From Clostridiales bacterium (GTDB lineage: Bacteria > Bacillota > Clostridia > Christensenellales > Aristaeellaceae): a stretch of DNA of 64,000 bases. The DNA lies in NCBI GenBank assembly GCA_004555535.1, contig SFHU01000001.1:10678-74677 (forward strand). Reading direction: 5' to 3'. Each line of letters opens with the position of its first letter. The first letter of the stretch is position 1. Both the position numbers and the translations under genes were made by a program. Below, in pieces: positions 16,308 to 50,376 of the stretch. The notes below the pieces were generated by a model that saw only the letters and a program-made list of their open reading frames with translations, ran no database searches and was not told the DNA's origin.

Positions 16308-17144
16308 ATGCGAAGAACGGTTCCGCTGCTTCTGATGGCTTTGCTTTTCATGACGACGATCCCCTGCGCCCTTTCCCGGGCACAGGGGCTTCGTGTCGAT
16401 TTTTACGACGTGGGCAAGGCCGACGCCATGCTCATCACCGCGCCCTCGGGCTTTCGGATGCTCATCGACGCGGGCACCAACAAGGCGGGCAAAACGCTCG
16501 CCGCGCGCCTTGTGAGCGAGGGCATCGAGCGCATTGACGTCATGCTCATCACGCACTTTGACAAGGACCACGTCGGCGGCGCCGACCGGATCCTCGGCGC
16601 GCTTTCGGTTGACCGCGTGATTCTGCCCGTCTATGACAAGGAGAGCAAGCAGCTTGAGCAGCTCGAGGAGGCGCTCGCCGCCAGCCCGCAGACGGAGGTC
16701 ACGCGCATGGAGACCGGCTCTACGCTGACGATTGAAACCGGCGAGGCGGACATGACCCTCTCCGTCACCGCCGCGCACAAGACCTTTTACGGCGCGGACG
16801 AGGAGAACGACTTCTCCCTCTGCACGCGGCTTTCCTACGGGCAGACGCGCTTTCTCTTCCCCGGCGACGCGGAGGACGCGCGCCAGCGCGAGCTGCTTGA
16901 GGAGGGCGACGTGCGCTGCGACGTGCTCAAGGTGCCCTATCACGGGCGGCTCGTCGCCGCCAGCCGCGACTTCCTGAGCGCGGCGGCCCCGGCGATCGCG
17001 TTCATCCCCGACAGCGACGAGGAGCCCGCCCATGAGGCGGTCATCGCGCAGCTTAAGCTGCTTGGCTGCGAGGTCTACAGCGCGCGCGGGGGCGATTTGA
17101 CAGTCGTCTCCGACGGGACGCAGGTTTCCGTGCTCGCGCCCTGA
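16308..17144 (+). CDS. secreted MBL-fold metallo-hydrolase (ComEC C-terminal-domain-like)
   Basis: Signal peptide, then DVGKADAMLI..LIDAG...MLITHFDKDHVGG and VLKVPYHG, as in ComEC/Rec2-related beta-lactamase-fold proteins. Confidence 0.75.
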   Translation: MRRTVPLLLMALLFMTTIPCALSRAQGLRVDFYDVGKADAMLITAPSGFRMLIDAGTNKAGKTLAARLVSEGIERIDVMLITHFDKDHVGGADRILGALSVDRVILPVYDKESKQLEQLEEALAASPQTEVTRMETGSTLTIETGEADMTLSVTAAHKTFYGADEENDFSLCTRLSYGQTRFLFPGDAEDARQRELLEEGDVRCDVLKVPYHGRLVAASRDFLSAAAPAIAFIPDSDEEPAHEAVIAQLKLLGCEVYSARGGDLTVVSDGTQVSVLAP

Positions 17145-17184: not shown

Positions 17185-17315
17185 GCGCGAAGCGAAGATG
17201 GGGTTTGGGGATGAAATCCCCAAGCAGGTTTGGGCGGCAGCCCTAACGTACTCCAATAGAATAAAAAATGCAGTTTCAGAGCAGGCTGCGCAGCAGCCTA
17301 CGATTGAAACGGGTT
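17185..17315 (-). repeat. interspersed modular repeat, short form (core 17270..17315)
   Basis: GCGCGAAGCGAAGATGGGG, TTTGGGGATGAAATCCCCAA, GGTTTGGGCGGCAGCCCTAACG, an AT-rich spacer, then GCAGTTTCAGAGCAGGCTGCGCAGCAGCCTACGATTGAAACGGGTT. Confidence 0.85.
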
Positions 17316-17394
17316 GGATCCTCCAAAAAGGAATTGAATAGAAGACGAATCACAGGAGAAACAGGCGGGCTTCCCGCCGGAAGGAGACATCAGG

Positions 17395-19444: not shown

Positions 19445-19446
<2 letters not shown>
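19405..19446 (+). terminator. rho-independent terminator after the GH42 gene
   Basis: GGGAGTCCGG..CCGGACTCCC followed by TTCTTTTCTTT. The stem resembles a hairpin module of the repeat family. Confidence 0.6.
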
Positions 19447-20226
<780 letters not shown>

Positions 20227-20230
<4 letters not shown>

Positions 20231-21285
20231 GCGTCCTCCTCCCTTCTCCTGCGCCCGAAGTAGACGAGCAGAAAGAATGGCGCGCCAAACAGCGCCGTGA
20301 CCGCGCCGACCGGCAGCTCGCGCGGGCTGAGCACCGTGCGCGCGGCCAGATCCGCCAGCATCATGCAGATGCCGCCCAGCAGCGCGCAGGCCGGCAGCAG
20401 CGCCCTGTGCCGCGGGCCGACGAGCCGGCGCGCCAGATGCGGCATGACCAGGTCGACAAACCCGATCGCGCCGCAGGCGGAGACAGCCGTACCCGTCAGC
20501 AGTGTCGCAAGCAGGATCAACGCCGTGCGCGTCCGTTTGGGCGAAAAGCCGCTCGTCCCGGCGAGCTCGTCGCCGAAGGTCAGGATATCCATCTCGCCGC
20601 AGAGGCGCAGCAGGCAGGGCAGCGCCAGCGCCAGCAGCACGAGAAGCAGCGCGCATTCCTCCATCGTCGCGCCAGAGAAGCTGCCCAGCTGCCAGAAGTA
20701 GAGCCGTTCGAGGGATTCGCGGTTAAGCGAGCAGAGCAGCGAGAGAATCGCCGAGGTCAGCAGGCTGATAACCATGCCGGTCAGCACGATGGTGTCGCTG
20801 CGCAGGCCGGGATCAAAGCGCGCGCTCAGCGCCATCGCCAAAAGCACGGTCGCCAGCCCGAAGGCAAAGCCCGCCGCGGGCAGCGTCGCCGCGCCGATCA
20901 GCGGCAGGCGAAGCCCCAGCAGCAGCACGAGCGCCGCGCCCAGCGACGCCCCGGAGGAGACGCCCAGCGTATAGCCCGAGGCGAGCGGATTGCGCAGCAC
21001 GCTCTGCATCACCGCGCCGGACACCGACAGCGCTGCGCCGCACAGGAGCGAGAGCAGCACGCGCGGCAGGCGCAGCTTCGTGAGGATGGAGACGTGGAGC
21101 GCGGGGATGGTTTCAGGCACCGGCGCGCCGGTCAGCCTCGCGCGCGCGATGGCCAGCGTCTCCCGCGCGGGGATGGCGACCGAGCCGACGCCCACGGCGA
21201 GCAGGAAGACCGCCGCGCAAAAGCACGCGAGGAGCAGCAGGACACCCGCCCTGCCGCTCCTCCTTTGTGAAATGGCATTACTCAT
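20227..21285 (-). CDS. FecCD/BtuC-family ABC permease
   Basis: Trimmed to MSNAISQRRSGRAG. Polytopic, with FecCD-like LRLPRVLLSLLCGAALSVSGAVMQ. Overlaps both neighbours. Confidence 0.85.
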
Positions 21286-22183
21286 ACAGCGCCGCATAGA
21301 CCTCGGGATAGACCGCCGCGAGCATCTCCCGCAGTGCGACCACGATATTCTGGCTCGGCTGGTTGCTGGCGTTCGCGTCGATCGCGTAGACGTCGCCATT
21401 TTGTACCGCCGTGACGCTCTCCCAGCCCGCACGAGCGAGGATTTCGCCGACCGGATCGTCGATGTAATTGACGCTGGTGAGGATCACGTCGGGGTTCGCG
21501 GCGAGGGCGTCCTCCTCCGTGACGGGCAGCCAGCCCGCCTGATCGCCGAAGACGTTCTTTGCGCCGATGAGCGTGATCATCTCGTCAAGGAACGTGCCAC
21601 TGCCGAAGGAATAGAGATACGGCAGCGCGCTGATCTCAAAGAGCACGGTCTTCTTCGGCTCGATGCCGGCGGTCGCCGCGCTGACGCGGTCCAGCTCGGC
21701 GTTCAGATTGTCCACCAGCGCCTCAGCCTCCTGCGCGCGATCCACGACGTCGCCGATGAAGGCGATGTCCTCCTCGATGGCGGCGATGGAGCTCGAGGAC
21801 GGGATGTCGACGACGGCGATGCCCAGGTCGATCAGCGCCTGATAGGGATCGCCGCTGATATAGGCCATGCCGGAGGTGAAGACGACGTCCGGCGCGAGCG
21901 CCGCGATGGCCTCGCAGTCCGGCGCCATCATGTCAAACGCGGGCAGCGCCTGCGCGCTCTCCATCTGCGCGGCGGTATTCGTGTCCACCGCGACGAGGCA
22001 GTCCGCCATGCCCAGTCCCTCGAGGATTTCCGCCGTGCTCGGGGCCAGGCAGACGATGCGCTCGACGGTATCCGGCAGGGCGATGGGGTTGCCCGCGCGG
22101 TCGGTATCGGGTTTTTCAGCCAGCGCGCACGCGGCGAGCATCAGCGCGGCCAGCACAAGCAGAGCGAGGATTTTTCTTTTCAT
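21278..22183 (-). CDS. periplasmic-binding-protein type (BtuF/FepB class) ABC substrate-binding lipoprotein
   Basis: Trimmed to MKRKILALLVLAALMLAAC (lipobox) with RBS AAGGAGA. Sits directly downstream of a cobalamin riboswitch. Confidence 0.8.
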   Translation of the reverse strand: MKRKILALLVLAALMLAACALAEKPDTDRAGNPIALPDTVERIVCLAPSTAEILEGLGMADCLVAVDTNTAAQMESAQALPAFDMMAPDCEAIAALAPDVVFTSGMAYISGDPYQALIDLGIAVVDIPSSSSIAAIEEDIAFIGDVVDRAQEAEALVDNLNAELDRVSAATAGIEPKKTVLFEISALPYLYSFGSGTFLDEMITLIGAKNVFGDQAGWLPVTEEDALAANPDVILTSVNYIDDPVGEILARAGWESVTAVQNGDVYAIDANASNQPSQNIVVALREMLAAVYPEVYAALYE

Positions 22184-22204
22184 GCTGCATTTCTCCTTGC
22201 ATGT

Positions 22205-22455
22205 GTTTTTTTGCGGCGCTCCTGCCGCCTTCCTCACAGCCGGAGGGGTCGGCGCGCGCGGATCGGTCTTCTGGCTTGGGTTTGCGTCCTCCCGCCTTCC
22301 CGGCCCGTCCGCCCGCTCGCAGGGCGGATTTCGCCAGTGACTGCCTGTTCGGCCTGGGAGGCCGCGCGTTTCCCTTACAGCAGCGGCTACTGCCGGAGAC
22401 TTTCACTCCGTTCCCGGGGCTTGCGCCCATCCGCGCGCCTTTCGGCGCTCACAAA
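22205..22455 (-). promoter_or_regulatory. cobalamin (B12) riboswitch
   Basis: The minus strand reads ..GGGAACGGAGTGAAAGTCTCCGG..GCCGCTGCTGTAAGG..GCAGTCACTGGCGAAA..GGGAAGGCGGGAGG..AAGCCAGAAGACCGATC (B12 box). It is preceded by an extended -10 (TGCTATAAT, 22460-22468) and followed by the BtuF-like gene. Confidence 0.8.
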
Positions 22456-22470
22456 TCTGATTATAGCATG

Positions 22471-22504: not shown

Positions 22505-22520
22505 CTCAATGACTGCTTTG

Positions 22521-22590
22521 GACTACGTTGGGCTGCCGCCCAAACCCGCTTGAGGATTTCATCCCCAAACCCCATCATCGCTTCGCGCGC
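22521..22590 (+). repeat. repeat fragment: core 3' remnant, H2 hairpin and tail; the tail overlaps a CDS 3' end
   Basis: GACTACGTTGGGCTGCCGCCCAAACCC...GAGGATTTCATCCCC...CATCGCTTCGCGCGC. Confidence 0.7.
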
Positions 22591-24116
22591 AGGAAAGAAG
22601 GCCAGCGCGCTTTGAAGGTGATATGCGGCTCGAGCAGCGCCGCCGCGCACAGCAGCAGCATTTCAAACTGGAAGAAGTAGCGCGCGCGCGTCTCCCACAT
22701 GCTCAGAAACAGGAACGCGCCCAGCAGCGCGATCATGACCGCCGCCGCGCGGGTGTCCTTCCTGCGCACGGCCTGGGCGCACGCCGCGCAGGCGAGCAGC
22801 AGCTGCGCGCAGAAGAGCGCCGTCGTCAGGTGGTAATACGCGCCATAGAGCGCGCCGCCCTCGAAGATGACCTGCTTGACCGGGTTGTCCGGCTCGTGCG
22901 CGTCCGCCTCGATGATCTCGTTGAGGCCGAAGGCGCCGTTGCCGAAGGTCGAGAGATTCTTGCGCGAGAGCAGACTCAGCAGCCGCGAGGGATAGCGCAC
23001 ATAGTAGATTCGGTCGATGACCTGCTCAAGCAGCGCCGCGTCGCGCGCCTGGGGATCCTCAAAGGAGGTCGAGAAGATCAGCCAGCCGCCGTCGCCGTAC
23101 TGCCCGTAGCCCTCGTCCTCATGGATGGGCAGACCCATCGCGATGTAGTGCAGCTTGGGCAACTCGTTTTGCTCGAGCTGCTGCGCGCTCAGGTGGCGCG
23201 CCGTTTCGGCGTCCATCCACGCGCCGCCCGCGGCGAACACCCCGGCGAGCGCGAGCGCGCAGGCAGCCGTCAGCCTTGGCCGCTTTTGCAGCAGCAGCGC
23301 GATCAGGCAGGCGATGGCCGCGATGATGGAGGTGAAGCGCAGCTGCGCGCCCACAAACGACGACGCCGCGAACGCGAGCGCCCAGAGCGCGCGGCCTCTG
23401 CGCGAAGCCGCCTCCCGCGCGCGCACGGCGCACAGCACGATCACAGGCGGGAACGCGAGCGAAAACGCGTCGGTATACAGCTCCGAGGACGCATACAGGA
23501 ACGGCAGGCAGGAGGCAAAGAGCAGCAGCACGCGCAATTCCGCGCGCACCCCGCCCAGACACCGGCACAGCCGCGCGCTGGAAAGCAGCCCCAGCGAAAA
23601 GAGCAGCGAGGCGACGAGCACCAACGGCAAAAAGCTGTCCGTCACGCCGAAGAGGCGGCAAACGCGCAGGATCGCCGCAAACGCGTAGACGAGACCGAGG
23701 TTATGCGGATAGCGCGAAAAATAGACGACGGAGCGCTCGTTTTGGCCAAACGTGCCCTGCTCGACGATCAGCCGCGCCGCCGTCACGCATTGCTCCAGGT
23801 CGGTCTTGGGCGTGTAGCGCAGCGCGCAGGCAAGCCCCAGCTGCACGGCCAGATAAAAAAGCGCGGCCAGCGCGAGGCATGCGCGCTCCCGGCGGGCAAA
23901 CGCCGCCTCCAGACGCCCCGCCGCCCGCAGCGCCAGCAGCAGCGCGAGCAGGCCAAGCGCCGTCAGCAGCGCCAGCAGGGGCCGGTTTCTGCCATAGAGC
24001 GGCCAGGGAGAGAGCAGCGTGTTGAGCGCCGTGAACAGAAAACAGGGAATCATCAGCGCCATGCCCACAAGCAGCAGCGCGCGCATCCATCCGCCGCGCG
24101 GGCGGGAAAGCCTCAT
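22575..24116 (-). CDS. GT-C fold membrane glycosyltransferase (ArnT/PMT_2, GT39/83-like)
   Basis: 513 aa with more than 10 TM helices and YFSRYPHNLG in the early loop. ATGA overlap with the upstream paralog. The last 4 codons (RAKR) are encoded by the repeat tail. Confidence 0.65.
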   Translation of the reverse strand: MRLSRPRGGWMRALLLVGMALMIPCFLFTALNTLLSPWPLYGRNRPLLALLTALGLLALLLALRAAGRLEAAFARRERACLALAALFYLAVQLGLACALRYTPKTDLEQCVTAARLIVEQGTFGQNERSVVYFSRYPHNLGLVYAFAAILRVCRLFGVTDSFLPLVLVASLLFSLGLLSSARLCRCLGGVRAELRVLLLFASCLPFLYASSELYTDAFSLAFPPVIVLCAVRAREAASRRGRALWALAFAASSFVGAQLRFTSIIAAIACLIALLLQKRPRLTAACALALAGVFAAGGAWMDAETARHLSAQQLEQNELPKLHYIAMGLPIHEDEGYGQYGDGGWLIFSTSFEDPQARDAALLEQVIDRIYYVRYPSRLLSLLSRKNLSTFGNGAFGLNEIIEADAHEPDNPVKQVIFEGGALYGAYYHLTTALFCAQLLLACAACAQAVRRKDTRAAAVMIALLGAFLFLSMWETRARYFFQFEMLLLCAAALLEPHITFKARWPSFLRAKR

Positions 24117-25656: not shown

Positions 25657-25792
25657 CGCGAAGCGAAGAGGGGAGTCTGAGGGACGATGTCCCACAGACA
25701 GGGTGCGGGGCGGCAGCCCCGCCGTATCCCATCAAATCTCCAAATCGCAGTCTCAGAGCAGGCTGCGCAGCAGCTTACGATTGAGACGGGTT
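25657..25792 (-). repeat. interspersed modular repeat, short form (core 25747..25792)
   Basis: CGCGAAGCGAAGAGGGGAGTC..GGGACGATGTCCC..GCGGGGCGGCAGCCCCGC..GCAGTCTCAGAGCAGGCTGCGCAGCAGCTTACGATTGAGACGGGTT. Confidence 0.85.
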
Positions 25793-25827
25793 GAATGCGC
25801 CCGGCGTGCTTCAGGCGCAAACCCTGC

Positions 25828-30439: not shown

Positions 30440-31267
30440 TCAGAGCCGCTGCGCGGCGGAGAGACCCGCGACGCAGCCCTCGCCGACGGCCTTGGCGACC
30501 TGGAGCGGCAGACCGGTGCAGTCTCCCGCGGCATAGACGCGCGGCACGCTCGTGCGCATCATGCGGTCGACGCGGATGAACGCGCCCTCGGTCTCAAGGC
30601 CGGGCAGCAGCGAGGAGAGGGCCATCGCCTCGCGGAAGATGAAGACGCCGTCAAAGGGCAGCTCCAGCCCACCGCAGAGCAGGCCGGTGGCGTGCGTGTC
30701 GCCAAGGATGGCCTCGGGGCGCTCCTGCCGCACGTCGACGCGCGGATCGAGCGCCGGGTCGGGCGCGCCGAAATAGGCCACCTGCTCGCAGATCGACGCC
30801 AGGAAGTTCGCCTCGTGCAGCGCCTCCGGGCCCTGAGCGATGACGGCGACGCGCTTGCCGCGGTAGAGCATGCCGTCGCAGGTGCCGCAATAGCTGACGC
30901 CGCGGCCGAGCAGCTCGCCTTCGCCGGGGAGCAGCCGGGGCTGCTTTGCGCCGGTGCAGAGCACGACCGTCGCGGCCTCGACGAAGTCCGCGCCCAGCGA
31001 CAGGCCGAAGGAATCGCCCATCGGGACGACCTGATGGACGACGCCGGGGCGCGTCTGCGCGCCGAGGGCTCTGGCCTGATCGCGCATGGCCGCAAGCAGC
31101 GCCGGGCCGGAGATATCCGGCAGGCCGGGATAATTGGCGATTTCCTGCGCGCGGGCGAGCCAGCCCGCGTGCTGGCCGATGACGAGGACGGACTTGTCGC
31201 GCTTTCTCGCGCTGATGGCGGCGGAATAGCCCGCGGGGCCCGCGCCGATGATAGCGATGTCCAGCAT
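30440..31267 (-). CDS. thioredoxin-disulfide reductase family flavoprotein
   Basis: Trimmed to MLDIAIIGAGPAGYSAA (RBS AGGAGG). Redox motif YCGTCDG; AAGDC near the C-terminus. Confidence 0.75.
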   Translation of the reverse strand: MLDIAIIGAGPAGYSAAISARKRDKSVLVIGQHAGWLARAQEIANYPGLPDISGPALLAAMRDQARALGAQTRPGVVHQVVPMGDSFGLSLGADFVEAATVVLCTGAKQPRLLPGEGELLGRGVSYCGTCDGMLYRGKRVAVIAQGPEALHEANFLASICEQVAYFGAPDPALDPRVDVRQERPEAILGDTHATGLLCGGLELPFDGVFIFREAMALSSLLPGLETEGAFIRVDRMMRTSVPRVYAAGDCTGLPLQVAKAVGEGCVAGLSAAQRL

Positions 31268-31420
31268 GATTGCCTCCTGAAAGAATGATAAGGCCGGCTT
31301 CTGAAACAGAAGCAAACCGAGAAGTGCATTGAAGGCTGCACAGCAAAGCCTTGGCTTTCTTCGCCTTAACCGAAGCATACCCTGTTCCGGTTTCAAGGCA
31401 AAATGCATTTGTTTGCAAAT

Positions 31421-31761
31421 CAGGGATACAGCCCCGGGTCCAGGGCCACAGCCCTGGTCGTTTCAAGGGGGTTATAGGGAGTCAAGAGGGATCTAAGGGG
31501 GGAAATCGAAATCCCCCCTGATCCCTCTTGCCCAGCGGAGCGCGTCTCCCCAGACGCAGAAAAGTGGATTTTTAAAAAATCCATAAGCTTTTGCGGAGCA
31601 GCTTCTTGCAACCGTTACGCATAAAACCCGTCTCAATCGTAGGCTGCTTCGCAGCCTGCTCTGAGACTACGTTTTTCTGGATTTGAGGGAGAACGATTGG
31701 GGCGCCGCCCCAAACCCCGCAAGGGACTTCGCCCCTTGACCCCATGTTCGCTTCGCGGCGG
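31421..31761 (+). repeat. interspersed modular repeat, long form (core 31626..31673)
   Basis: Left arm AGCCCCGGGTCCAGGGCCACAGCCCTGGTCGTTTCAAGGGGG, AGAGGGATC..GATCCCTCT, TGCCCAGCGGAGCGCGTCTCC, an AT-rich stretch, the core, TTGGGGCGCCGCCCCAA, CAAGGGACTTCGCCCCTTG and the tail TTCGCTTCGCGGCGG. Confidence 0.85.
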
Positions 31762-31767: not shown

Positions 31768-34023
31768 TCAGCTTCTCAATTCAACCTGCTTCCCCTTGAG
31801 CGCAACCGTCAGCGGCTCGCCGGAGAGCAGCCTGAGGCCCGTGCTCTCGCGCGTGACGCTGACCTCGATCAGCCGTCCGCGATAGACGATCTTGAAGGCG
31901 TAGCCGTCCCAGCCGTCGGGCAGCTGCGGGTCAAAGCTCAGCTCGCCCGTGATCGTGCGCATGCCGGCAAAGCCCTGCACGATGGAGAGCCAGCTGCCCG
32001 CCATCGAGGTGATGTGCAGGCCGTCGCCGGTGTCGTTGTTGATGTTGTCCAGATCCAGCCGCGCCGTGCGCTGGTAGAGCTCCTGCGCCTTGTCGAGCCT
32101 GCCGATGGAGGCGGCGAGGATGCTGTGCACACAGGGCGAGAGGCTCGACTCATGCACCGTCATCGGCTCGTAGAACTCGAAGTTCCGGCGGATCGTCTCC
32201 TTGTCGTAGAGGTGCTCCAGGAAATACAGGCCCTGGAGCGTGTCGGCCTGCTTGATGAAGCAGGAGCGCAGGATCTTGTCCCAGCTCCAGTGCTGGTTGA
32301 TCGGCCGCTCCTCGCTTGAGAGGCTCGAGGCCGGGCGCAGCTCCTTGTCAAGGAACGTGTCGTGCTGCACGAAGATGCCCAGCTCCTCGTCACAGGGCAG
32401 ATACATCTTCTCGCTGATCTCCCTAAAGCGGCGCAGCTCCTCCGCGCCGACGCCCAGCGTCTGCGCCTTCTCGCGCGGCACGAGCATCAGCTGCTCCGCC
32501 GTATAGGAAAGCACCCAGGCGGCCATGCGGTTGGTGTACCAGTTATTATTGACGTTATTTTCGTATTCATTCGGGCCGGTCACGCCGTGGATCATGTAGC
32601 AGTCCTTTTTCGCGCAGTAATGGACGCGGCCCGCCCAGAAGCGCGCGATGCCCAGCAGCACGTCGATGCCATAGGTATCCAGATAGCCGCGGTCGCCGGT
32701 GTACTGCGTATAGGCGTAGATCGCGTAGGCGATGGCGCTGTTGCGGTGGATCTCCTCGAAGGTGATCTCCCACTCGTTGTGGCACTCGACGCCGGTGAAG
32801 GTGACCATCGGATAGAGCGCGCCGGGCAGCCCCTGCTCGCGGGCGTTGTGGTAGGCGCCGTCGAGCTGGAGCCAGCGGTATTTGAGCAGATTCTGCGCGA
32901 CCTCCTCGCCCGCAATCGCGGTATACAGCGGCAGGCAGTAGGCCTCGGTATCCCAGTACGTCGCGCCGCCGTATTTTTCGCCCGTGAAGCCCTTGGGGCC
33001 GATGTTCAGCCGCGCGTCCTCGCCGTAATAGGTCGAGAAGAGCTGGAAGATGTTGAAGCGGATGCCCTGCTGCGCGGCGACGTCGCCCGCGATGAGGACG
33101 TCGGCCTTCTCCCAGCGGCGAGCCCAGGCGCGCTCCTGCTCGCGGCGCAGCGCGTCATAGCCGGCCTGCTGCGCGGCCATGGCGCCGTCATGCGCGGAAA
33201 GGGCGAACGCCTCCTCGCTGTGGTCGCGGCTGGTCGTCACGCAGACGAACTTGTCGCAGCCGACGGTCTGCCCCGGCTCGCAGTCAAAGACAAGCTTGCG
33301 GCAGACATAGCCCTCCTGGGTCGAGGTCTTGTTCTTGCGCGGCTTTTCGGTGGGCGTGACGGCCATCGCGCCGACGACCGCGAAGCGCGGCGTGCCGAAG
33401 GGATTCTCCTTCGTGCGCACGGCGACGCTCAGCACGCCGCTCTCGGACTCCTCCTCGCCCTCAAAGAGCCAGAACGTCTCGTCATAGTTGGCATCCTCGT
33501 TGTGCACGTCGGCGTCAATGGCCGGCAGCAGCGCGACCTTGCAGGCGTAGTCCGCCGTGACGCGGCAGCGCAGCGCGAGAATCTCCGGTCTGTCGATGGA
33601 CACGAAGCGCTCAAAGCTCACGCGCACCGTGCCGCCCTCGCGGCGGATGACGAAGTCGCGCGAGAGGACGCCCTCGCGCATGTCGAGCATCCGCGTGAAG
33701 GAGACGACCTCGTCCGTCGCCAGGTCGATATCCTCCCTGTCGATGCGCACGCGCAGGGAGATGATGTTCATCGCGTTGATGACCTTGCCGAAGTAGAGCG
33801 GATAGCCGTTCTTCCACCAGCCCACGCGCGTCTTGTCCGGGAACCAGACGCCCGCCAGATAGGTGCCCCGGTGGCAGTCTCCGCTGTAACGCTCCTCGAA
33901 ATTGCCGCGCATGCCCATGTGCCCGTTGCCGATGGAGGTCATCGACTCGGACAGGCGCATGTCTTCGCGGTGCAGCTCGCGCTCCACGAGCCGCCAGGGA
34001 TCATAGGCAAACAGTGTCTTCAT
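31768..34023 (-). CDS. GH65 glycoside phosphorylase (maltose/kojibiose phosphorylase family)
   Basis: About 751 aa. ESMTSIGNGHMGMRGNFEE at the N-terminus and GTGDGLHITSMAGSW in the C-terminal catalytic region are typical of GH65. Confidence 0.9.
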   Translation of the reverse strand: MKTLFAYDPWRLVERELHREDMRLSESMTSIGNGHMGMRGNFEERYSGDCHRGTYLAGVWFPDKTRVGWWKNGYPLYFGKVINAMNIISLRVRIDREDIDLATDEVVSFTRMLDMREGVLSRDFVIRREGGTVRVSFERFVSIDRPEILALRCRVTADYACKVALLPAIDADVHNEDANYDETFWLFEGEEESESGVLSVAVRTKENPFGTPRFAVVGAMAVTPTEKPRKNKTSTQEGYVCRKLVFDCEPGQTVGCDKFVCVTTSRDHSEEAFALSAHDGAMAAQQAGYDALRREQERAWARRWEKADVLIAGDVAAQQGIRFNIFQLFSTYYGEDARLNIGPKGFTGEKYGGATYWDTEAYCLPLYTAIAGEEVAQNLLKYRWLQLDGAYHNAREQGLPGALYPMVTFTGVECHNEWEITFEEIHRNSAIAYAIYAYTQYTGDRGYLDTYGIDVLLGIARFWAGRVHYCAKKDCYMIHGVTGPNEYENNVNNNWYTNRMAAWVLSYTAEQLMLVPREKAQTLGVGAEELRRFREISEKMYLPCDEELGIFVQHDTFLDKELRPASSLSSEERPINQHWSWDKILRSCFIKQADTLQGLYFLEHLYDKETIRRNFEFYEPMTVHESSLSPCVHSILAASIGRLDKAQELYQRTARLDLDNINNDTGDGLHITSMAGSWLSIVQGFAGMRTITGELSFDPQLPDGWDGYAFKIVYRGRLIEVSVTRESTGLRLLSGEPLTVALKGKQVELRS

Positions 34024-34105
34024 GGAAGAATTCAACCTTTCTTGCCGGCGGGGCCGGCCCTCGCTCCGGAGGCGGATTCCTGTCAGTCAAAAAACGCTTG
34101 TCAAA

Positions 34106-36984: not shown

Positions 36985-37452
36985 ATGAGCATCGAAAGAG
37001 CGCGGGCCCACCTGCAAAAGCACGGGCTCGCGGACAGAATCATCGAATTGGACGTCTCCAGCGCGACGGTCGCCCTGGCGGCGCAGGCGCTGAACTGCGA
37101 GAGCAACCGCATTGCCAAGACGCTCTCCTTCTCGCGCGGCGAGGGCGCGATCCTCATCCTCGCGGCGGGCGACGCGCGCATCAACAACGCGAAATTCAAG
37201 GCCCGCTTCGGCATGAAGGCGCACATGCTGCCCCACGACGCCGTCGAGCCGCTGATCGGCCACGCGGTCGGCGGGGTCTGCCCGTTCGGCATCAATCCCG
37301 GCGTGCCGGTGTATCTGGATGAATCGCTGCGCGCGTTTGACATCGTCTATCCCGCGGCGGGCACGGCCGCCAGCGCCGTGCGCCTGAGCCTCGAGGAGCT
37401 CGAGCGCGCCAGCGAGGCCGAAGGCTGGGTCGATGTCTGCAAGGCGCTTTGA
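36985..37452 (+). CDS. YbaK/EbsC-family aminoacyl-tRNA deacylase
   Basis: 155 aa; IAKTL..., GHAVGGVCPFG motif. Confidence 0.8.
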   Translation: MSIERARAHLQKHGLADRIIELDVSSATVALAAQALNCESNRIAKTLSFSRGEGAILILAAGDARINNAKFKARFGMKAHMLPHDAVEPLIGHAVGGVCPFGINPGVPVYLDESLRAFDIVYPAAGTAASAVRLSLEELERASEAEGWVDVCKAL

Positions 37453-37800
37453 CCGCCGCGAAGCGAAGAAGGGTCAAGGGGCTTAGCCCCTTGCGGGGTC
37501 TGGGGCAGCGCCCCAGGCAGGCTTGGGCGGCAGCCCAACGTTCCCTAATCAATCATTCAAGAAAACGTAGTCTCAGAGCAGGCTGCAAAGCAGCCTACGA
37601 TTGAGACGGGTTATCCATGCCAGGGCGGCTGGAAGCTTCTCAGCTGAAACGATCCGGGATTTCAGTAAAACCTCATTTGCGTCTGGGAAGACGCGCTCCG
37701 CGGGCCAGAGGGCGGAGGAGGGATCTCGACCTCCCCCCTCCACCCTCTGGACTCCCCCACCCCCTCGAAACGACCAGGGCTGCGGCCCTGGACCCGGGGC
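37453..37800 (-). repeat. interspersed modular repeat, long form (core 37564..37612)
   Basis: Begins 1 nt after the ybaK stop with CCGCCGCGAAGCGAAGAAGGGTCAAGGGGCTTAGCCCCTTG and ends with CCAGGGCTGCGGCCCTGGACCCGGGGC. Module order is colinear with 31421..31761 in reverse complement. Confidence 0.85.
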
Positions 37801-38817: not shown

Positions 38818-39696
38818 TCACCGCTCCATGAAGTCCCAGAGCCTTTGCAGCTCCTCCTGGCTGGCGTATTCCAGGATGATTTTGCCCTTCTGCTCGCTGC
38901 CCGTGAGGCTGACCTTGAGGCCCGTCGCGCTGCGCAGCCGCTCGGTCAGCTCCTCATACTCGACGGGGAGCGGATCTGGCTTTTTCTTTTCCTTCTTCTC
39001 GGGCGCGTTCTTCGCCGCGGCCTCGAGCTGGCGCACCGACCAGCCGAATTGCAGCGTCTTGGCGAAGAGATTCGCCTGCTGCTCGCGGTTCTCGATGCCC
39101 GCGAGCACGCGCGCATGCCCGGCGGAGAGCGTCCCGTCGATCACGGCCTGCTGAATCCGCGCGGGCAGGTTCAAAAGCCGCAGCAGGTTGGCGATGGCCG
39201 GGCGGCTGCGCCCGAGCCGCTCGGCGACGGCCTCCTGCGTCAGCGCGCATTCGTTCATCAGCGCGTAAATGCCCTGCGCCTCCTCGATGGGGTTGAGGTC
39301 CTCGCGCTGGATGTTCTCCACCAGCGCGGCCTCCTGCCGCTTGATGTCGTCCCATTCGCGCACAATGGCGGGAATCGTGGAGAGCCCCGCAATGCGCGCC
39401 GCGCGCCAGCGGCGCTCGCCCGCGATGATCGTGTAGCGGCTGCCGCTGCGGGCGACGAGGATCGGCGAGATCACGCCGCTGTGGCGGATGGATTCGGCCA
39501 GCGCGAGCAGCGCGTCGTCGTCAAAGCGCTTGCGCGGCTGGTTGCGGTTGGGATCGATCTCGCCCAGCGGCAGCTCCACGACCGCGCCCTCGGGCGCCGG
39601 CGTGCCCGCCTGCGCGGACTCGACCGATTCGACAACCTCTTCCACGTCCGGCAGGATCGCGCTCAGGCCCCTGCCCAGCCCCATTTTCTTCGCCAT
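38818..39696 (-). CDS. spo0J: chromosome partitioning protein ParB/Spo0J
   Basis: Trimmed to MAKKMGLGRGLSAIL (RBS GAGGGAG). PNRNQPRKRFD, GERRWRAA, LVENIQREDLNPIEEA. Confidence 0.9.
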   Translation of the reverse strand: MAKKMGLGRGLSAILPDVEEVVESVESAQAGTPAPEGAVVELPLGEIDPNRNQPRKRFDDDALLALAESIRHSGVISPILVARSGSRYTIIAGERRWRAARIAGLSTIPAIVREWDDIKRQEAALVENIQREDLNPIEEAQGIYALMNECALTQEAVAERLGRSRPAIANLLRLLNLPARIQQAVIDGTLSAGHARVLAGIENREQQANLFAKTLQFGWSVRQLEAAAKNAPEKKEKKKPDPLPVEYEELTERLRSATGLKVSLTGSEQKGKIILEYASQEELQRLWDFMER

Positions 39697-39793
39697 GCTC
39701 AGATGCTCCCTCATTCCCGGGGGAAGGTTCTTCCCCTGATCTTGCGGCGTGACGCCGGTAAATTGGGTCTGTATGCCCGCTTGGCAGGCTCAA

Positions 39794-40028
39794 ACCCGTC
39801 TCAATCGTAGGCCGCTTCGCGGCCTGCTCTGAGACTACGTTCTCTTTTTCTATTTTTGGGGGATACGATAGGGCTGCCGCCCTATGACCTGCCTGAGGGA
39901 TTTCAGGCCGGGGAACTCGCATGGTCGCGCTGCGGCGCTTCCTGCGATTCCCGACGCTTCGTCTGCCTCTTTCCGCCATTGGCGGCGGCAGACTTCGGTC
40001 CCCTCAGACTCCCTTCTTCGCTTCGCGC
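39794..40028 (+). repeat. interspersed modular repeat, short form with an approx. 100-bp insertion in the H3 hairpin (core 39794..39842)
   Basis: Core with GGCCGC/GCGGCC stem, then GATAGGGCTGCCGCCCTATGACC, then CTGAGGGATTTCA[insert]CCCCTCAGACTCCCTTCTTCGCTTCGCG. Compare 59631..59767, which lacks the insert. Confidence 0.85.
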
Positions 40029-40048
40029 TGTTTGAAGCGGGCGCTGCG

Positions 40049-40807
40049 TTACACTCTGCTCAAAAATTCCTTCGCCAGCGCCTGATAGCTCTGCGCGCCC
40101 AGCGAGCGCGGGTCGTAGAGGCTGATGGGCAGGCCGTGGCTCGGGGCCTCGCCCAGACGCACGTTGCGCGGAATGACCGTGCCAAAGACCTTGCCCTTGA
40201 AGACCTTGCGCACCTCCTGGGCGACCTGCACGCCCAGATTCGTGCGCGCGTCGAGCATCGTCAGCACGACGCCGTCGATCGTCAGCCGCCGGTTGATGCG
40301 CTGCACCTTCTGAATCGTGCCCATCAGCGCGCTGACGCCCTCCAGCGCGTAATACTCGCACTGGATCGGGATGAGCACGCCGTCGGCGGCGCACAGCGCG
40401 TTGAGCGTGATCAGCCCCAGCGAGGGCGGGCAGTCGATGAAGATATAGTCGTAATCATCCCCCGCGCCGGCAAGCGCCTCGGCGAGCACATGCTCGCGCC
40501 GCTCCATGCCGGCCAGCTCGATCTCCGCGCCGGCCAGACGGATATCCGCCGGGAGGACGAAGAGCGTGTCGATGCCGGTCTTGACGGCGGCGTCGGAAAG
40601 CGCCGCCTCCCCCGCCATGACCTCATAGACCGTCTTCGTCTTCTCCCGCACGCGCACGCCGAAGCCGCTCGACGTATTGCCCTGCGGATCGGCGTCCACG
40701 ACGAGCACGCGGCGGCCCTCCTGCGCGATGCAGGCGGAGAGGTTGACGCTGGTGGTCGTCTTGCCCACGCCGCCCTTCTGGTTCGTAATTGCAATGATTC
40801 TGGCCAT
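40049..40807 (-). CDS. soj: ParA/Soj partitioning ATPase
   Basis: Trimmed to MARIIAITNQKGGVGKTTTSVNL (deviant Walker A). DADPQGN, IDCPPSLG. Confidence 0.9.
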   Translation of the reverse strand: MARIIAITNQKGGVGKTTTSVNLSACIAQEGRRVLVVDADPQGNTSSGFGVRVREKTKTVYEVMAGEAALSDAAVKTGIDTLFVLPADIRLAGAEIELAGMERREHVLAEALAGAGDDYDYIFIDCPPSLGLITLNALCAADGVLIPIQCEYYALEGVSALMGTIQKVQRINRRLTIDGVVLTMLDARTNLGVQVAQEVRKVFKGKVFGTVIPRNVRLGEAPSHGLPISLYDPRSLGAQSYQALAKEFLSRV

Positions 40808-40826
40808 AGTATTCCTCAAGCTTCCA

Positions 40827-41285
40827 TCACCGGCGCTGGCCGTTCTCCTCCAGCACCTGCGTAATCCATTCCCGGTCAAAGCCGTCGAGCGGGAAGCGCG
40901 CGAGCAGCTCGCGCATCGCGGCAAAGGAGCCCTCGCGGGCGAGGTCAAAGAGCGCGCTTTGCAGCGCCTCGCTCACATCCATGCGCGCGTAGGCGAGGGC
41001 GAGCAGCCTGTCCGCCAGGTCGCGCAGGCGGTCGCTGGTCACGCGCTCGCGCCGCCCGCCGTCAAGCTGCACGACCATCGAGCGCTCCGTGCCCAGATAC
41101 ACGGCGTTGAAGAGCACGGAATCCAGCCGGCGCCAGATTTCGGCGGGCGAATCCTGTGTGCGCATGAAGCGCACGAGCTGCGCGTTGATCGTATAGACGA
41201 GCTCCGGGCTCTTGCGCACCAGCGCGCTCCCCAGCGCGCCCATGAGCATGCCCTCAATCTGATCCAGCCTGCCCGGCATCGTCAT
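40827..41285 (-). CDS. hypothetical protein immediately upstream of soj
   Basis: 152-aa ORF ending 19 nt before the soj start; helical, no family recognised. Confidence 0.5.
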   Translation of the reverse strand: MTMPGRLDQIEGMLMGALGSALVRKSPELVYTINAQLVRFMRTQDSPAEIWRRLDSVLFNAVYLGTERSMVVQLDGGRRERVTSDRLRDLADRLLALAYARMDVSEALQSALFDLAREGSFAAMRELLARFPLDGFDREWITQVLEENGQRR

Positions 41286-44233: not shown

Positions 44234-44288
44234 CGCGAAGCGAAGAAGGGTCAAGGGGCTAAGCCCCTTGACCCTATTTCGCTTCGCG
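44234..44288. repeat. tail-to-tail palindromic repeat fragment
   Basis: CGCGAAGCGAAGAAGGGTCAAGGGGCT-A-AGCCCCTTGACCCTATTTCGCTTCGCG, a near-perfect 55-nt palindrome between convergent pmbA and thrE-type genes. Confidence 0.8.
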
Positions 44289-44756
44289 CGGGTTAAAGCG
44301 GCTTCGCGGGGTAATGCTCCCCCGTCGCATGCCCAGGGCGCGGAAGACCACCGATGTGACCGCCGCGCCGACGGCAATCGCGCCGACGATCTGCACCGCC
44401 TGAAGTCCATAGGCCGCAGCGGCCGCGCCCTGATCCTCCACCAGCGCGAGCATCGCGCGATAGAAACTGTAGCCGGGCACGAGCGGCACGAGCGCGCTGA
44501 GCAGGAAGATCGTCGTGGGCGTGCGCATCACGCGCGCCGCAATCTCGCAGATGACAGCGATGACGACCGTCGAGAGGAAATAGCTGAAAATCAGGCTCTG
44601 GCCCATGCCGCGGCTCAGCAGCAGATAGAGCACGTACCCCAGCACACCGATGAGCGACGAGGGCAGCAGCGTCCGCCTCGGCGCGTTGAGCAGGCAGGCC
44701 AGGCCGATCGTGCCGCCAAACGCGCCGGCAGCCCCGACGAGCAGCTCACGAATCAC
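44274..44756 (-). CDS. threonine/serine exporter family protein, C-terminal-type half (DUF3815-like)
   Basis: GTG 44756 overlaps the upstream stop (GTGA). 160 aa, 4-5 TM. The last codons NPREAK are encoded by the repeat tail. Confidence 0.7.
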   Translation of the reverse strand: MIRELLVGAAGAFGGTIGLACLLNAPRRTLLPSSLIGVLGYVLYLLLSRGMGQSLIFSYFLSTVVIAVICEIAARVMRTPTTIFLLSALVPLVPGYSFYRAMLALVEDQGAAAAAYGLQAVQIVGAIAVGAAVTSVVFRALGMRRGSITPRSRFNPREAK

Positions 44757-46503: not shown

Positions 46504-46552
46504 GGGAAGCATCCTCCTTGATTGATGTCTGTAATCACATATCGTGTTTTGC

Positions 46553-46790
46553 GGCGAGCAAGCCGCTTGCAGCGAGCACAGAGCCGCTCGTACTATAAAA
46601 CCCGTTCGGAAGCGGGTCAGGCACAGCCCGCCCCAGCCGCTTGCGGCGGGCACAGAGCCTCAAGCACCTGCAACGCCCTTCGGAAGTGGGTGCGGGCACT
46701 GTCCGCCCCAGCCGCTTGCGGCGAGCACAGAGCCTCAAGCACCTGCAACAACCTTCGGAAGTGGGTGCGGGCACTGCCCGCCAGCCCGCC
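46553..46790. repeat. 75-bp tandem repeat, 3 units plus a partial fourth, between kduI and the kduD-like gene
   Basis: Units start at 46553 (diverged), 46628 and 46703: CCGCCCCAGCCGCTTGCGGCG(G/A)GCACAGAGCCTCAAGCACCTGCAAC..CCTTCGGAAGTGGGTGCGGGCACTG. The array ends flush with the kduI stop codon. Confidence 0.9.
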
Positions 46791-47842: not shown

Positions 47843-49315
47843 TTGTGCGACGACGCGATTGTGCTCTGCGGGCGGCTTTCGCGCGACCTTGACGTGCTGC
47901 GCGCGCGCCTGGGCGCGCCGGGGAACGCCGATGTGCTGATCCGCCGGTTCCGCTCAGGCGCGTTTGAATCCGCCGTCGTGGCCATCGACGGCATGGTCAA
48001 TGTGACGACGGTCGACGAGAATATCCTCAAGCCCTGCATGGACCTGCCCGCGTCCGCCGGGGAGGACGTCGCTGAAGAGGAGCGCGTCGCCTTTCTGATG
48101 GCGCACGCCGTGTCCGTGTTGCCGGTGAAGATGGAGACGCGCGTCGACGCGCTGCTCACGGATGTGCTCAGCGGGCAGACAGCGCTGCTGTGCGAGGGCT
48201 GCGCCGAGGCTGCCATCATGGACACGCGCGGGTTTGACAAGCGCAGCGTCGGCAGGCCGGAGGCGGAAAAGGTCGTCCTCGGGCCGCACGAGAGCTTCAC
48301 GGAGTCCATCCGCACGAACATCACGCTGCTGCGGCGCATCGTGCAGCGCGAGGAGCTGACGACGGAGTTCGTGCAGGCGGGCGGCAGGATGAAGACGCGC
48401 TGCGCGCTGCTGTATCTGCGCGGCACGGCGGACGAGGCGATGATCTCGCGCATCCGGGGGCGGCTGGAGCGCTGCGACTACGACTTCGCGCTGACCAGCG
48501 GCGAGGTCGAGCAGCTCATCGAGGAGCACCCGATGGCGCTCATTCCCCAGTGCGTGCGCACGGAGCGGCCGGACAGGGCCGCCTCGTTCCTGGCGGAGGG
48601 GCAGGTCGTCGTGCTGACGGAGGGCTCCCCCGCCGCGCTGGGCGCGCCCTCGACGATCTTCCACCAGCTGCACACGCCGGACGACAGCTCCATGCGCTGG
48701 CAGTACGGCACGTTTCTGCGGCTCGTGCGGCTGCTGGGCGTGATGATCCATCTGTTCCTGCCGGGGATGTATCTGGCTGTCCTGCGGTTTCATCAGGAGC
48801 TGCTCTCGCCCATGCTGCTGACCAGCGTGTATGAGACGAGCTCGCGCGTGCCGACGCCGGCATACCTGGAGGCGCTGCTGATGACGCTCGCGTTCGACCT
48901 GATCAGCGAGGCGGGGCTGCGCGCGCCGGGCGAGATGGGCAACGCGCTGGGCATCGTCTCGGGCCTGATCCTCGGGCAGAGCGCCGTCAGCGCCGATATC
49001 GTCAGCCCGCTGCTGCTCATCGTCGTGGCGGCCAGCGGCCTGGGCGGCTTCTGCGTGCCCAATTACGCGCTCTCCGTCGGGCTCAAGCTCGTGCAGCTGA
49101 TCCTGCTGACCGCCGGGGCCGCGGGCGGGCTCTACCTCATGGCCATCGTCACGCTTTCGCTGCTGTGCGCCGCCTGCGCGATGAATTCCATCGGCTCGCC
49201 GCTGACCGCGCCGCTCACGCCGCACAGGCGGCATTCGCCGGATCTCCTGCTGCGCCTGCCGCTCAGGTTCCAGAAAGCGAGGGCTTTTTTTGCCGGACAC
49301 AACGAAGACGGATGA
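47843..49315 (+). CDS. spore germination protein, GerA (A-subunit) family
   Basis: TTG start after GGGAGGA. DVLIRRF....AVVAIDGMV, and the GerA-type C-terminal membrane region PTPAYLEALLMTLAFDLISEAGLRAP. Confidence 0.85.
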   Translation: MCDDAIVLCGRLSRDLDVLRARLGAPGNADVLIRRFRSGAFESAVVAIDGMVNVTTVDENILKPCMDLPASAGEDVAEEERVAFLMAHAVSVLPVKMETRVDALLTDVLSGQTALLCEGCAEAAIMDTRGFDKRSVGRPEAEKVVLGPHESFTESIRTNITLLRRIVQREELTTEFVQAGGRMKTRCALLYLRGTADEAMISRIRGRLERCDYDFALTSGEVEQLIEEHPMALIPQCVRTERPDRAASFLAEGQVVVLTEGSPAALGAPSTIFHQLHTPDDSSMRWQYGTFLRLVRLLGVMIHLFLPGMYLAVLRFHQELLSPMLLTSVYETSSRVPTPAYLEALLMTLAFDLISEAGLRAPGEMGNALGIVSGLILGQSAVSADIVSPLLLIVVAASGLGGFCVPNYALSVGLKLVQLILLTAGAAGGLYLMAIVTLSLLCAACAMNSIGSPLTAPLTPHRRHSPDLLLRLPLRFQKARAFFAGHNEDG

Positions 49316-50372
49316 CGTCACGGCGCGCCGGGTGCGCGCCTCCCTGCGCGCGCGCGCCTGCGCCGCCGCCACCGCGACCGGCGCGATGGTCTTCGCCATG
49401 GGCACGGGGCTGCTCCTGCCGCTCGCGCTCAACGCCGCATGGCTGGCGGCGCTGCCCGGCGCGGCGCTCTCGATGCTCCTCGCGGCGCGCGCCCCGCAGG
49501 CGCTGCGCACCCATGCGCAGCAGGCAGAGGAAAAACGCCCCGCGGGAAGGATCCCCGCCGCGCTGCTCGCGCTGACCATGCTTTTTGGCTGCGTGCTGCT
49601 GCTCGCGGCGCTCGCCTCGCTGGCCCAGCAGTCGCTGCTGCCCCAGGCGCAGACGTCCTTTGCGATGGTCTGCTCGCTGCTGGGCGCGGGCCTGTGCGCG
49701 CTCAGCGGCGGCGCGGGGGTCTGCCGCCTCGCCTTCGCGCTGCGCTGGGCGCTGCCGCTGCTGCTGCTCGCGCTGGCGGCGGGGCCGGTCAGCACGCAGC
49801 CGGTCAGCGGGCTCTTCCCGCTGCTGGGCATGGGCACGGGGCCGCTGCTGCTGGGCGCGCTGTGCGGCCTGAGCGCTGCCGCGCCCGCGCTGATGCTGCT
49901 GCTGCCCCCGCCGGAGCTGACGCAGGAGCAGCTGGCGGCCTGCCCGCCGCCGAAAGCGGGCTTCTTCGCGCGGCGCGTCGCCTGCGGCGCGCTGCTGGGC
50001 ACGGCTATGCTGCTGGCGCTGTCGCTGTGCGCCCCCTATGAGACGCTTCGGGGGCTGAGCGTCTGGGGCGCGCGGATGCGCCTCATCTGCGCCGGCGCGC
50101 CGGGCGGCGGGCTGTCGCGCACGGCGCTCGTGCTCACGCAGACGGCGGCGCTGCTCGTGGGCGCGGGCGCGCTTTTAAGCGCCAGCGCACAGGCGCTGGA
50201 ATGCGCCCTGCCCGCGCTGCGGGAAAGGCATGCCGCATTGGGCGCAGGCTTTGCCCTCTGCGCGCTGGCGCTCTGGGGGCTGGCATGCTTTGGCCTGCGG
50301 CCGCTGTTCGCCGCCGCGCCGTTTCTGATCGTTCCGGCGACTATCGCCGCAATGGGAATAGGAAAACATTGA
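49290..50372 (+). CDS. polytopic membrane protein in the GerAB (germinant permease) position
   Basis: 360-aa Ala/Leu-rich ORF with about 10 TM, overlapping the gerAA end and preceding gerAC. Call rests mainly on operon position; start (TTG 49290) is uncertain. Confidence 0.55.
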   Translation: MPDTTKTDDVTARRVRASLRARACAAATATGAMVFAMGTGLLLPLALNAAWLAALPGAALSMLLAARAPQALRTHAQQAEEKRPAGRIPAALLALTMLFGCVLLLAALASLAQQSLLPQAQTSFAMVCSLLGAGLCALSGGAGVCRLAFALRWALPLLLLALAAGPVSTQPVSGLFPLLGMGTGPLLLGALCGLSAAAPALMLLLPPPELTQEQLAACPPPKAGFFARRVACGALLGTAMLLALSLCAPYETLRGLSVWGARMRLICAGAPGGGLSRTALVLTQTAALLVGAGALLSASAQALECALPALRERHAALGAGFALCALALWGLACFGLRPLFAAAPFLIVPATIAAMGIGKH

Positions 50373-50376
50373 ATCA

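Follow-up and report, generated by a model that had tools for sequence, protein, structure and literature searches.

Between two reverse-strand genes of a Clostridiales bacterium (contig SFHU01000001.1 of assembly GCA_004555535.1), a short nested hairpin stands at 31630-31667 on the forward (F) strand, and further copies of it, their stems altered on both arms together, are scattered over the 64,000-nt stretch analysed here (contig positions 10,678 to 74,677; hereafter the window, whose coordinates are used unless a locus is named). This raises the question whether the fold itself is maintained, as an earlier note on this DNA had proposed, in which nucleic acid and on which strand it would form, and to what kind of element it belongs. 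We find that the fold is maintained and the paired base changes are real, and that the hairpin, instead of standing alone as an RNA motif, forms the head of a composite mosaic repeat. The repeat is quite probably a high-copy interspersed mosaic element of high-GC gut Clostridia (Candidatus Ventricola and relatives), located at gene 3′ ends and resembling repetitive extragenic palindromes (REPs) and bacterial interspersed mosaic elements (BIMEs), BOX and SPRITE repeats. The family itself is new and well documented, whereas the kind of system to which it belongs is known.

The head hairpin and its copies in the window

The 38-nt head hairpin (GTCTCA-ATC-GTAGGCTGC-TTC-GCAGCCTGC-TC-TGAGAC, the core) is composed of an outer stem GTCTCA/TGAGAC, an internal loop ATC/TC, an inner stem GTAGGCTGC/GCAGCCTGC with an invariant T·G, and the triloop TTC. 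The window holds 11 copies, all intergenic: ten cores were detected with a degenerate pattern at no more than three mismatches (expected 0 from 100 shuffles), and the eleventh, a decayed core at 59635, was recovered by nhmmer. The inner stem reads GGCTGC/GCAGCC in cores 17273, 31630, 37570 and 60958, GGCCGC/GCGGCC in 39798, 50483 and 57766 and GACCGC/GCGGTC in 58667, with a mismatch (GTAAGC) in core 25750; the outer stem is GTTTCA/TGAAAC in core 17273. H2, a hairpin of the tail described below, occurs as TTGGGC/GCCCAA, TAGGGC/GCCCTA, CAGGGC/GCCCTG and CGGGGC/GCCCCG. All core and H2 stem variants listed in the earlier note were recovered in place. The two copies that it had taken for dead (59631 and 63939) are also real: folded as DNA, the decayed cores 59635 and 63943 reach only −2.9 and −4.9 kcal/mol, against −10.9 kcal/mol for intact copies. 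Core 59635 has intact orthologues at L059, L069 and L075 (loci of the wider sample carry L numbers).

Copies beyond the window

Species-representative genomes were scanned with the outer stem fixed and the inner stem free, which gave more than 108 matching stretches in at least 15 assemblies, all of them metagenome-assembled genomes (MAGs) labelled Clostridia, Clostridiales, Ca. Ventricola or Oscillibacter. A metagenome scan with the inner-stem frame fixed and four outer pairs free added 120 further loci, many from human gut metagenome assemblies. Since each scan left one stem free, pairing in the free stem was not imposed by the search. With nhmmer, 273 copies were found in 1.59 Mb of loci, corresponding to 201 loci after flank matching. 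Besides gut metagenomes, the hosts are Ca. Ventricola and related Clostridia, represented by at least 15 MAGs of species level. Viral contigs gave 0 matches, and plasmid and phage collections none, except that part of a tail was matched on an unannotated contig of 4.9 kb. No published description of the repeat was found, a literature search with sequence strings returning unrelated primer matches only.

Paired changes in the stems

Among 141 copies, 99.3% of stem cells of the alignment were paired and 105 cells were changed on both sides. None of 500 shuffles reached the observed values for cells paired, both-side changes and covariation score; shuffles matched the counts of pairs and of pair types in 37 and 295 of the 500, respectively. 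Taking the 122 distinct haplotypes only, 98.2% of cells were paired, seven pairs showed both-side changes and all five measures stood at 0 of 500 shuffles. Shifting the 3′ partner by one to three columns, done on the 141 copies, left pairing at only 26-42%. RNAalifold predicted the inner stem with each of its nine pairs, and of the six pairs of the outer stem it predicted four.

The scan with the outer stem free returned GTTTCA/TGAAAC 76 times, GTCTCA/TGAGAC 27 times and a mixed copy once, together with an extra compensated variant, GTCCCA/TGGGAC. Perfectly paired stem haplotypes number about 20 over six variable pairs, and five inner-stem types were each found with both outer-stem types. Eight changes would be enough without homoplasy while at least 19 are needed for 20 haplotypes; by these haplotype counts, repeated double changes or recombination between copies, not one amplification, must have occurred. 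Orthologous loci differing by compensated changes, loop included, were seen at L017 versus L021 (GCTGC-GGT-GCAGC against GATGC-TTC-GCATC) and at L067/L027 versus L107. The tail hairpins H2-H4 likewise stay paired across differing sequences.

A qualification comes from the stem type, which correlates with the similarity of the remaining element (0 of 300 permutations), so that subfamily amplification inflates the raw covariation counts and many 'compensatory' cells are inherited. The proposal of a maintained fold is thus upheld by the pairing of 98-99% and by the paired haplotypes, but many of the cells counted for it are inherited within subfamilies. Copies may survive or spread only while every hairpin can form in single-stranded nucleic acid.

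Alternatively, the fold would not be under selection and complementarity would be restored mechanically, either through patch gene conversion between copies or through template switching within a strand at quasi-palindromes. Both in-situ differences (L017 versus L021, L067 versus L107) alter arms and loop together, like a block replacement, and the correlation of stem type with the rest of the element also speaks for it. Template switching would, however, erase the ATC/TC loop and the T·G, which are invariant in about 270 copies. Decay is rare (about 34 non-Watson-Crick events over 191 loci x 14 pairs), decayed copies fold poorly, which would follow if imperfect ones were lost or failed to spread, and H2-H4 are also paired in spite of their differing sequences. 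Mechanical restoration therefore appears very improbable to us.

A variant head at L194:1776-1821 and L173:2147-2192, GTTTCAGTCGCAGAATGC-TTC-GCGTTCTGCGACTGAAAC, has GTC/GAC in place of ATC/TC; these bases pair and make one continuous stem.

Loops, wobble pairs and strand

Twenty-five head positions are invariant (ATC-GTAG...CTGC-TC plus the T·G) and probably mark sequence-specific recognition by some factor. For the GTAG, the 122 haplotypes carry G13 in 121, T14 in 116 (C in 6) and A15 and G16 in at least 120; this tetranucleotide sits inside the outer stem, where G, A and G (3 of its 4 bases) are able to pair with CTGC. The T·G, sole regular wobble of the F strand, is conserved as sequence and not as a pair: 116 of the 122 haplotypes have it, six have C-G and none has T-A. 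At variable pairs, the count per locus was 7 for G·T, 15 for A·C and 12 for mismatches of other kinds. Since wobble is no better tolerated than mismatch, these counts argue against selection on one RNA strand only, no single RNA strand being favoured, and fit a constraint on both transcribed strands or on DNA. The F and R strands gave equally good RNA folds (−23.8 kcal/mol, z −5.8, and −23.4 kcal/mol) and equally good DNA folds (−10.9 and −9.9 kcal/mol), respectively.

Loops, again per locus, are TNC in 138 of 198 and TNT in 41, which the opposite strand reads as GNA and ANA; 70% of head loops thus appear there as GC-GNA-GC. The heptamer GCGAAGC recurs at the head apex, in a spacer hairpin and at the tail end, and CGCTTCGC at the apex of a sister head, in the spacer hairpin (GATCGCTTCGCGAT) and at the tail end. 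The d(GCGNAGC) motif of Hirao and co-workers is an extraordinarily stable DNA mini-hairpin, much weaker in its RNA form, with natural examples at priming sites and N4 promoters on single-stranded DNA (ssDNA) (PMC13037366); the likeness here is a sequence match only, both the loops and GCGAAGC lying on the opposite strand.

Seven of the 11 window loops read TTCG or TGCG once the following base is counted in, and had been taken as a clue to RNA hyperstability of the UNCG tetraloop class. This clue does not hold: the stem closes as GC-TNC-GC around a 3-nt loop, a triloop closed by C-G, and TTCG as the loop would leave a C-C clash where c(UNCG)g needs its closing pair. From the earlier alternative of an RNA or an ssDNA hairpin, what remains is that both strands fold and that the opposite loops read GNA; the RNA loop clue and a preference for wobble drop out. 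A palindromic protein site in double-stranded DNA was rejected, many different arm sequences occurring in one genome.

We consider it highly improbable that the copies are structured RNA genes or cis-regulatory RNAs made from the F strand, with the G·U wobble and a stable loop as RNA features. Such RNAs would agree with a T·G that is a wobble on the F strand only, with a strong hairpin followed by a U-tract and with both-side changes at seven pairs. But no conserved promoter was seen, conservation ending about 45 nt upstream, no Rfam family matched at gathering or E<5 thresholds, and neighbour genes are unrelated. Among the 73 tandem contexts, moreover, 58 have the F strand antisense to the genes on either side; variable pairs show G·U no more often than A·C, the R strand folds as well, the UNCG reading fails, and one copy per about 6 kb with turnover of presence and absence is also contrary to it. 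At gathering score the only Rfam hit in the window was a cobalamin riboswitch, elsewhere; at E<5 the head hairpin had no match, and the sole overlap with an element was the Burkholderia small RNA ncS01 on the tail of core 60958 (61016-61106, 23.4 bits against a gathering score of 58, E 0.45).

Build of the composite element

Behind the head hairpin come a T-tract and a spacer, then GC-rich hairpins in tandem (one to three units, each of about 24 nt) and finally a conserved end, CTTCGCTTCGCG/CCCTTCTTCGCTTCGCG, for a total of 150-250 nt; upstream of the core, conservation reaches about 45 nt. The strict tail end motif accompanies 109 of 142 cores, nearly all others having slight variants. Its distance from the core is 67-106 nt, and where a nested insert is present about 163-192 nt.

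The same tail stands behind at least three alternative heads; those other than the core occur at window 5827-5975, at L010, L016, L045 and at about 30 other loci. 'Head C', CCGTCAGG-TAAC-GCTTCGC-TC-CCTGAC-TGCTTTT, has about 33 copies and shares the core architecture, a 6-bp outer stem, an internal loop and a GC-TTC-GC apex. 'Head B', a GGAATCGCA-ATAGTCGCCTTCGGCTCCGC-TGCGATTCT hairpin (GGAATCGCA...TGCGATTC), has about 20. At one orthologous site the head was swapped on the same tail (L021 versus L033/L017). Some tails are headless. Of 272 tail motifs, 83 had no core within 400 nt upstream, a count limited to tails preceded by 330 nt or more of sequence.

After the head, T makes up 77-89% at positions +5 to +8, 70% at +9 and 62% at +10, against a background of 19%, and 71% of loci have at least six T in the first 10 nt. 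The other strand has a mean of 3.2 T in 10 nt, only GGGTTT. Head and U-tract may thus act as a putative intrinsic terminator on the F strand. A simple terminator scanner missed the site owing to the internal loop. Two other candidates were rejected: a promoter upstream of the head, as conservation ends at about −45 with no properly spaced −35/−10 by eye and a scanner adds nothing, and a tRNA-like 'GACTCGAACCC' of one copy, from which other copies differ.

A second repeat of about 95 nt (CCGGGGAACTCGCATAGTCGCGC...GCGCTCCTTGCGATTCCCGACGCTCCGCCTGCC...GGCAGGCTCCGGTCCC) is nested in H3 of many elements, sometimes twice (window about 39900-40000, in the tail of 39798; L003, L009, L025, L064, L078, L100 and others), and looks like an independent small insertion element. 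A 129-nt module including GGAGCGCGTCT(C/T)CCCAGACGC lies to the left of three heads (31410-31538 and 63716-63844, 75% identical, and also about 37700-37760), which suggests mosaic pieces beyond head and tail.

Position beside genes and turnover

Counting one copy per locus, contexts were tandem-antisense in 58, tandem-sense in 15, convergent in 57 and divergent in 7; the element thus avoids divergent (promoter) regions. From the tail end to the opposite-strand stop codon, the median distance is 21 nt (interquartile range 14-30, n=128 loci), as in the window from 40027 to 40049, from 50380 to 50372 and from 37457 to 37452, and the head side is 91-113 nt from the neighbour gene. The extended tail (GCTTTGAACC / GCTTTAAACC, sense strand) itself provides the TGA or TAA in some copies. 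No target motif was seen beside the tail; the stops are TAA in 53, TGA in 49 and TAG in 3.

Flanking genes are functionally unrelated (GH65, GH42, pseudouridine synthase, M20 peptidase, glycine transporter and others). Antisense copies occur inside gene rows, one separating parA from parB (38818-40948) and another the second gene from the third in a gerA-like row for spore germination (47843-51822), so that transcription must read through the element or restart downstream. If the head terminates transcription, sense insertions between co-transcribed genes would be polar and could be lost by selection, leaving antisense or convergent copies; such loss would account for the 58:15 bias and for antisense copies within operons. 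Along the window the element changes direction together with the local genes, every few kb, and hence follows transcription, not replication. Orientation by replication strand was accordingly rejected, the window having no GC-skew switch.

The presence of the whole element varies between related genomes. L003 is filled where two genes abut in L036, the window copy at 57803 is absent from the orthologous L075 site, the L059 site has an ordinary terminator hairpin instead of the window copy at 58667, and L151 versus L031 shows a filled against an empty or replaced orthologous site. In a close relative, L029, a 240-nt deletion removes the 5′ half of core 37570.

The distance to stop codons could be explained by a mobile 'gene-end cassette' whose selected form is ssDNA, a putative HUH-type or other ssDNA enzyme reading GCGNAGC on the sense strand and setting the tail just past stops. 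We hold this quite unlikely. It would be the first REP-like hairpin mobilisation in Firmicutes of the type driven by REP-associated tyrosine transposases (RAYTs), and with it would come a new rule, strand-specific insertion close to stop codons.

Search for signs of mobility

Several observations weigh against an interspersed mosaic repeat with a terminator-like head and a maintained fold, besides the correlation of stem type with the rest of the element. Simple insertion tolerance does not explain the tight adjacency of the tail to stop codons. Gene contexts come from a crude codon-usage gene caller, checked against Pfam in the window only. The 4-nt TRCG spacer between stem and T-run is atypical for a terminator. 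No transposase was found, the 1.59 Mb around the 273 cores having no open reading frame (ORF) with HUH and Y motifs (a motif regex, by which a single-copy gene could be missed). The readable filled/empty pairs (L003 versus L036, window 57803 versus L075) show no clean target-site duplication (TSD), and terminal inverted repeats (TIRs) longer than 5-8 nt are lacking. The pairs L151 versus L031 and L012 versus L102 are too rearranged for a TSD reading, and fast intergenic change blurs the boundaries.

The repeat does not look like a miniature inverted-repeat transposable element dependent on a DDE transposase, for which a TIR and a TSD would be expected. Compared with the palindrome-associated transposable elements (PATEs) derived from the insertion sequence (IS) family IS200/IS605, which have sub-terminal hairpins at both ends, no TSD and a cognate TnpA in the genome, the repeat has a GC-TTC-GC apex in the head and at the tail end, no TSD was seen and the motif screen gave no TnpA. 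Adjacent core pairs are 5 among the 273 copies, 3 of them inverted, with no dimer arrangement of the REPIN/BIME type.

A true REP-RAYT system, in which a GTAG-tagged ssDNA hairpin is bound, cut and copied by an HUH Y1 transposase (RAYT), one per genome, so that only hairpin-forming copies are mobilised, is unlikely here, though several features speak for it: the GTAG is invariant at the 5′ foot of a variable stem that varies only at its top, 70% of opposite-strand loops are GNA with GCGAAGC recurring in head apex, spacer hairpin and tail end, wobble is not preferred, and copies are gained and lost between genomes. In contrast, the GTAG lies inside the outer stem with 3 of 4 bases pairable and is hardly an unpaired terminal tag, and copies are singletons but for the five adjacent pairs. 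The motif screen of the 1.59 Mb, which could miss a single-copy gene, turned up no ORF combining HUH and Y motifs, GTAG REPs are not reported in Firmicutes (PMC3733652), and orientation tracks local gene direction rather than one replication direction. A REP with a CGTC tag was also rejected, CGTC being lost in the common GTTTCA variant.

Comparison with REP, BOX and SPRITE repeats

Standard features of REPs are GTAG tags, G-T pairs, sub-families with compensated stems and an intergenic location, preferably convergent or unidirectional, and GTAG REPs are known from Proteobacteria, Cyanobacteria, Chloroflexi and PVC (Planctomycetes-Verrucomicrobia-Chlamydiae) bacteria, not from Firmicutes (PMC3733652). 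As in REP/BIME (Di Nocera et al. 2013, PMC3733652; Nunvar et al. 2010, PMC2817692), we have here a short GC-rich imperfect palindrome in hundreds of copies, its 38 nt within the 20-40 nt of a high-copy extragenic palindrome, with a conserved GTAG at the 5′ stem foot, sub-families whose stem arms change in a complementary way and sometimes form G-T pairs, further repeat modules joined to it in a mosaic, and location downstream of genes near stop codons, between convergent and unidirectional ORFs. Unlike in REPs, the GTAG is internal and largely paired, the palindrome has an outer stem and a T-tract around it, a long multi-hairpin tail is fixed to each copy, copies are singletons and not inverted dimers, the motif screen showed no RAYT gene, and the host is a Firmicute.

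In pneumococci, modular A-B(n)-C repeats are known, as is a terminator-like repeat enriched at convergent 3′ ends (PMC3049150). The former, BOX (boxA-boxB(n)-boxC; Croucher et al. 2011, PMC3049150), shares with our repeat a Firmicute host, a conserved head, variable tandem hairpins and a conserved end, as well as alternative end modules on the same middle (boxE/F of S. suis) and a tight predicted fold. This likeness is one of build, no sequence relation being apparent; BOX ends pair as TIRs, whereas here only GCTTT/AAAGC (5 nt, by eye) could do so, and our element is GC-rich. SPRITE (PMC3049150) also has a long hairpin followed by a U-rich tract, is enriched at the 3′ ends of convergent genes and has no known matching IS; it differs by a single 18-bp duplex and a long U-tract, against a nested hairpin with an invariant internal loop, a 4-nt spacer and a multi-hairpin tail.

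For annotation, the repeat marks many gene ends in common uncultured gut Clostridia, and recognising it avoids its mis-calling as CRISPR-like repeats, riboswitches or small RNAs; breaks in assemblies and differences of intergenic length between strains are explained by it as well. Its loci (more than 200), its stem haplotypes (about 20 paired ones) and the invariance of its unpaired positions make it a natural data set on which hairpin selection can be told apart from subfamily amplification. If the terminator or insulator reading is right, one repeat family supplies much of the 3′-end architecture of these genomes; should an ssDNA enzyme be involved, REP-type biology would reach Firmicutes.

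Elements of the window

The repeat makes up about 3% of the window. The full element around the hairpin of departure (31605-31757, +) begins with a left conserved stretch (..GCTTTTGCGGAG..AAACCC), continues with the head at 31630-31667 and the T-tract TACGTTTTT and ends with a tail made of H2 (TTGGGGCGCCGCCCCAA), H4 (CAAGGGACTTCGCCCCTTG) and the end motif GTTCGCTTCGCGG; it is antisense to both neighbours, a GH65 gene (31768-34035, −) and a Pyr_redox_2 gene (30440-31408, −).

On the reverse strand, the element at 17186-17335 (core 17273-17310) has the compensated outer stem GTTTCA/TGAAAC, its tail adjoining the stop of a Lactamase_B gene (16308-17144, +). The one at 25657-25812 (core 25750-25787), with an A·C mismatch (GTAAGC), follows PseudoU_synth_2 and is the sole window copy co-oriented with its flanking genes. 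At 37457-37632 (core 37570-37607), the loop is TTT and the tail, with three hairpins, adjoins the tRNA_edit stop (36985-37452, +). The GGCCGC/GCGGCC element at 50380-50545 (core 50483-50520), with loop ACG, belongs to the gerA-like row; it lies 8 nt past the stop of the ORF 49290-50372 and about 100 nt ahead of a GerAC-family gene (50629-51822). That at 57678-57828 (core 57766-57803), with the same inner stem and the loop AAA, shows one outer-stem mismatch (TGAGTC), and its L075 site is empty.

On the forward strand, the element at 39773-40027 (core 39798-39835, GGCCGC/GCGGCC) holds the nested second repeat (CCGGGGAACTCGCATGGTCGCGC...) in its tail and is antisense to parA (40049-40948, −) and parB (38818-39714, −). 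The element at 58642-58820 (core 58667-58704, GACCGC/GCGGTC) has the GATCGCTTCGCGAT spacer hairpin, and that at 60933-61094 (core 60958-60995, GGCTGC/GCAGCC, loop TGC) has a tail adjoining the stop of the ORF 61108-63033 (−). Two are decayed, 59610-59767 (core 59635-59672) with the 3′ arm GTGTTC and 63918-64000 (core 63943-63980) with the 3′ arm ACATCC and TGTGAGAC, the latter cut by the window end.

Three related forms were also located. The sister element at 5827-5975 (+) has head C (CCGTCAGG-TAAC-GCTTCGC-TC-CCTGAC-TGCTT) before the same tail, and the tail module at 22520-22600 (+; H2, H3, ...ATCGCTTCGCGCG) has no core and a different hairpin ahead of it. A minimal symmetric relative at 44234-44301 (no strand assigned), between convergent genes, consists of a single hairpin (CAAGGGGCTAAGCCCCTTG) with the tail-end motif on both sides in opposite orientations; this symmetric form (CGCGAAGCGAAGAAGGGTCAAGGGGCTAAGCCCCTTGACCCTATTTCGCTTCGCG) is a roughly 30-bp palindrome.

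Other features of the window

The cobalamin riboswitch at 22244-22461 (−) scores 50.2 bits (E 1.5e-9) and precedes an operon of BtuFCD-like arrangement, Peripla_BP_2 / FecCD / ABC_tran (19445-22237, −). A 75-nt GC-rich unit is repeated three times in tandem at 46546-46769 (64-93% identity), in or beside the 5′ end of an SDR gene and in the intergenic region before a KduI/IolB gene. Finally, a 24-nt unit is repeated in tandem about 19 times (61-86% identity) at 13881-14336, inside a PG_binding_1 gene of 900 aa (13567-16278, +); its products on two metagenome contigs have 919 and 871 aa, which suggests copy-number variation of the unit.

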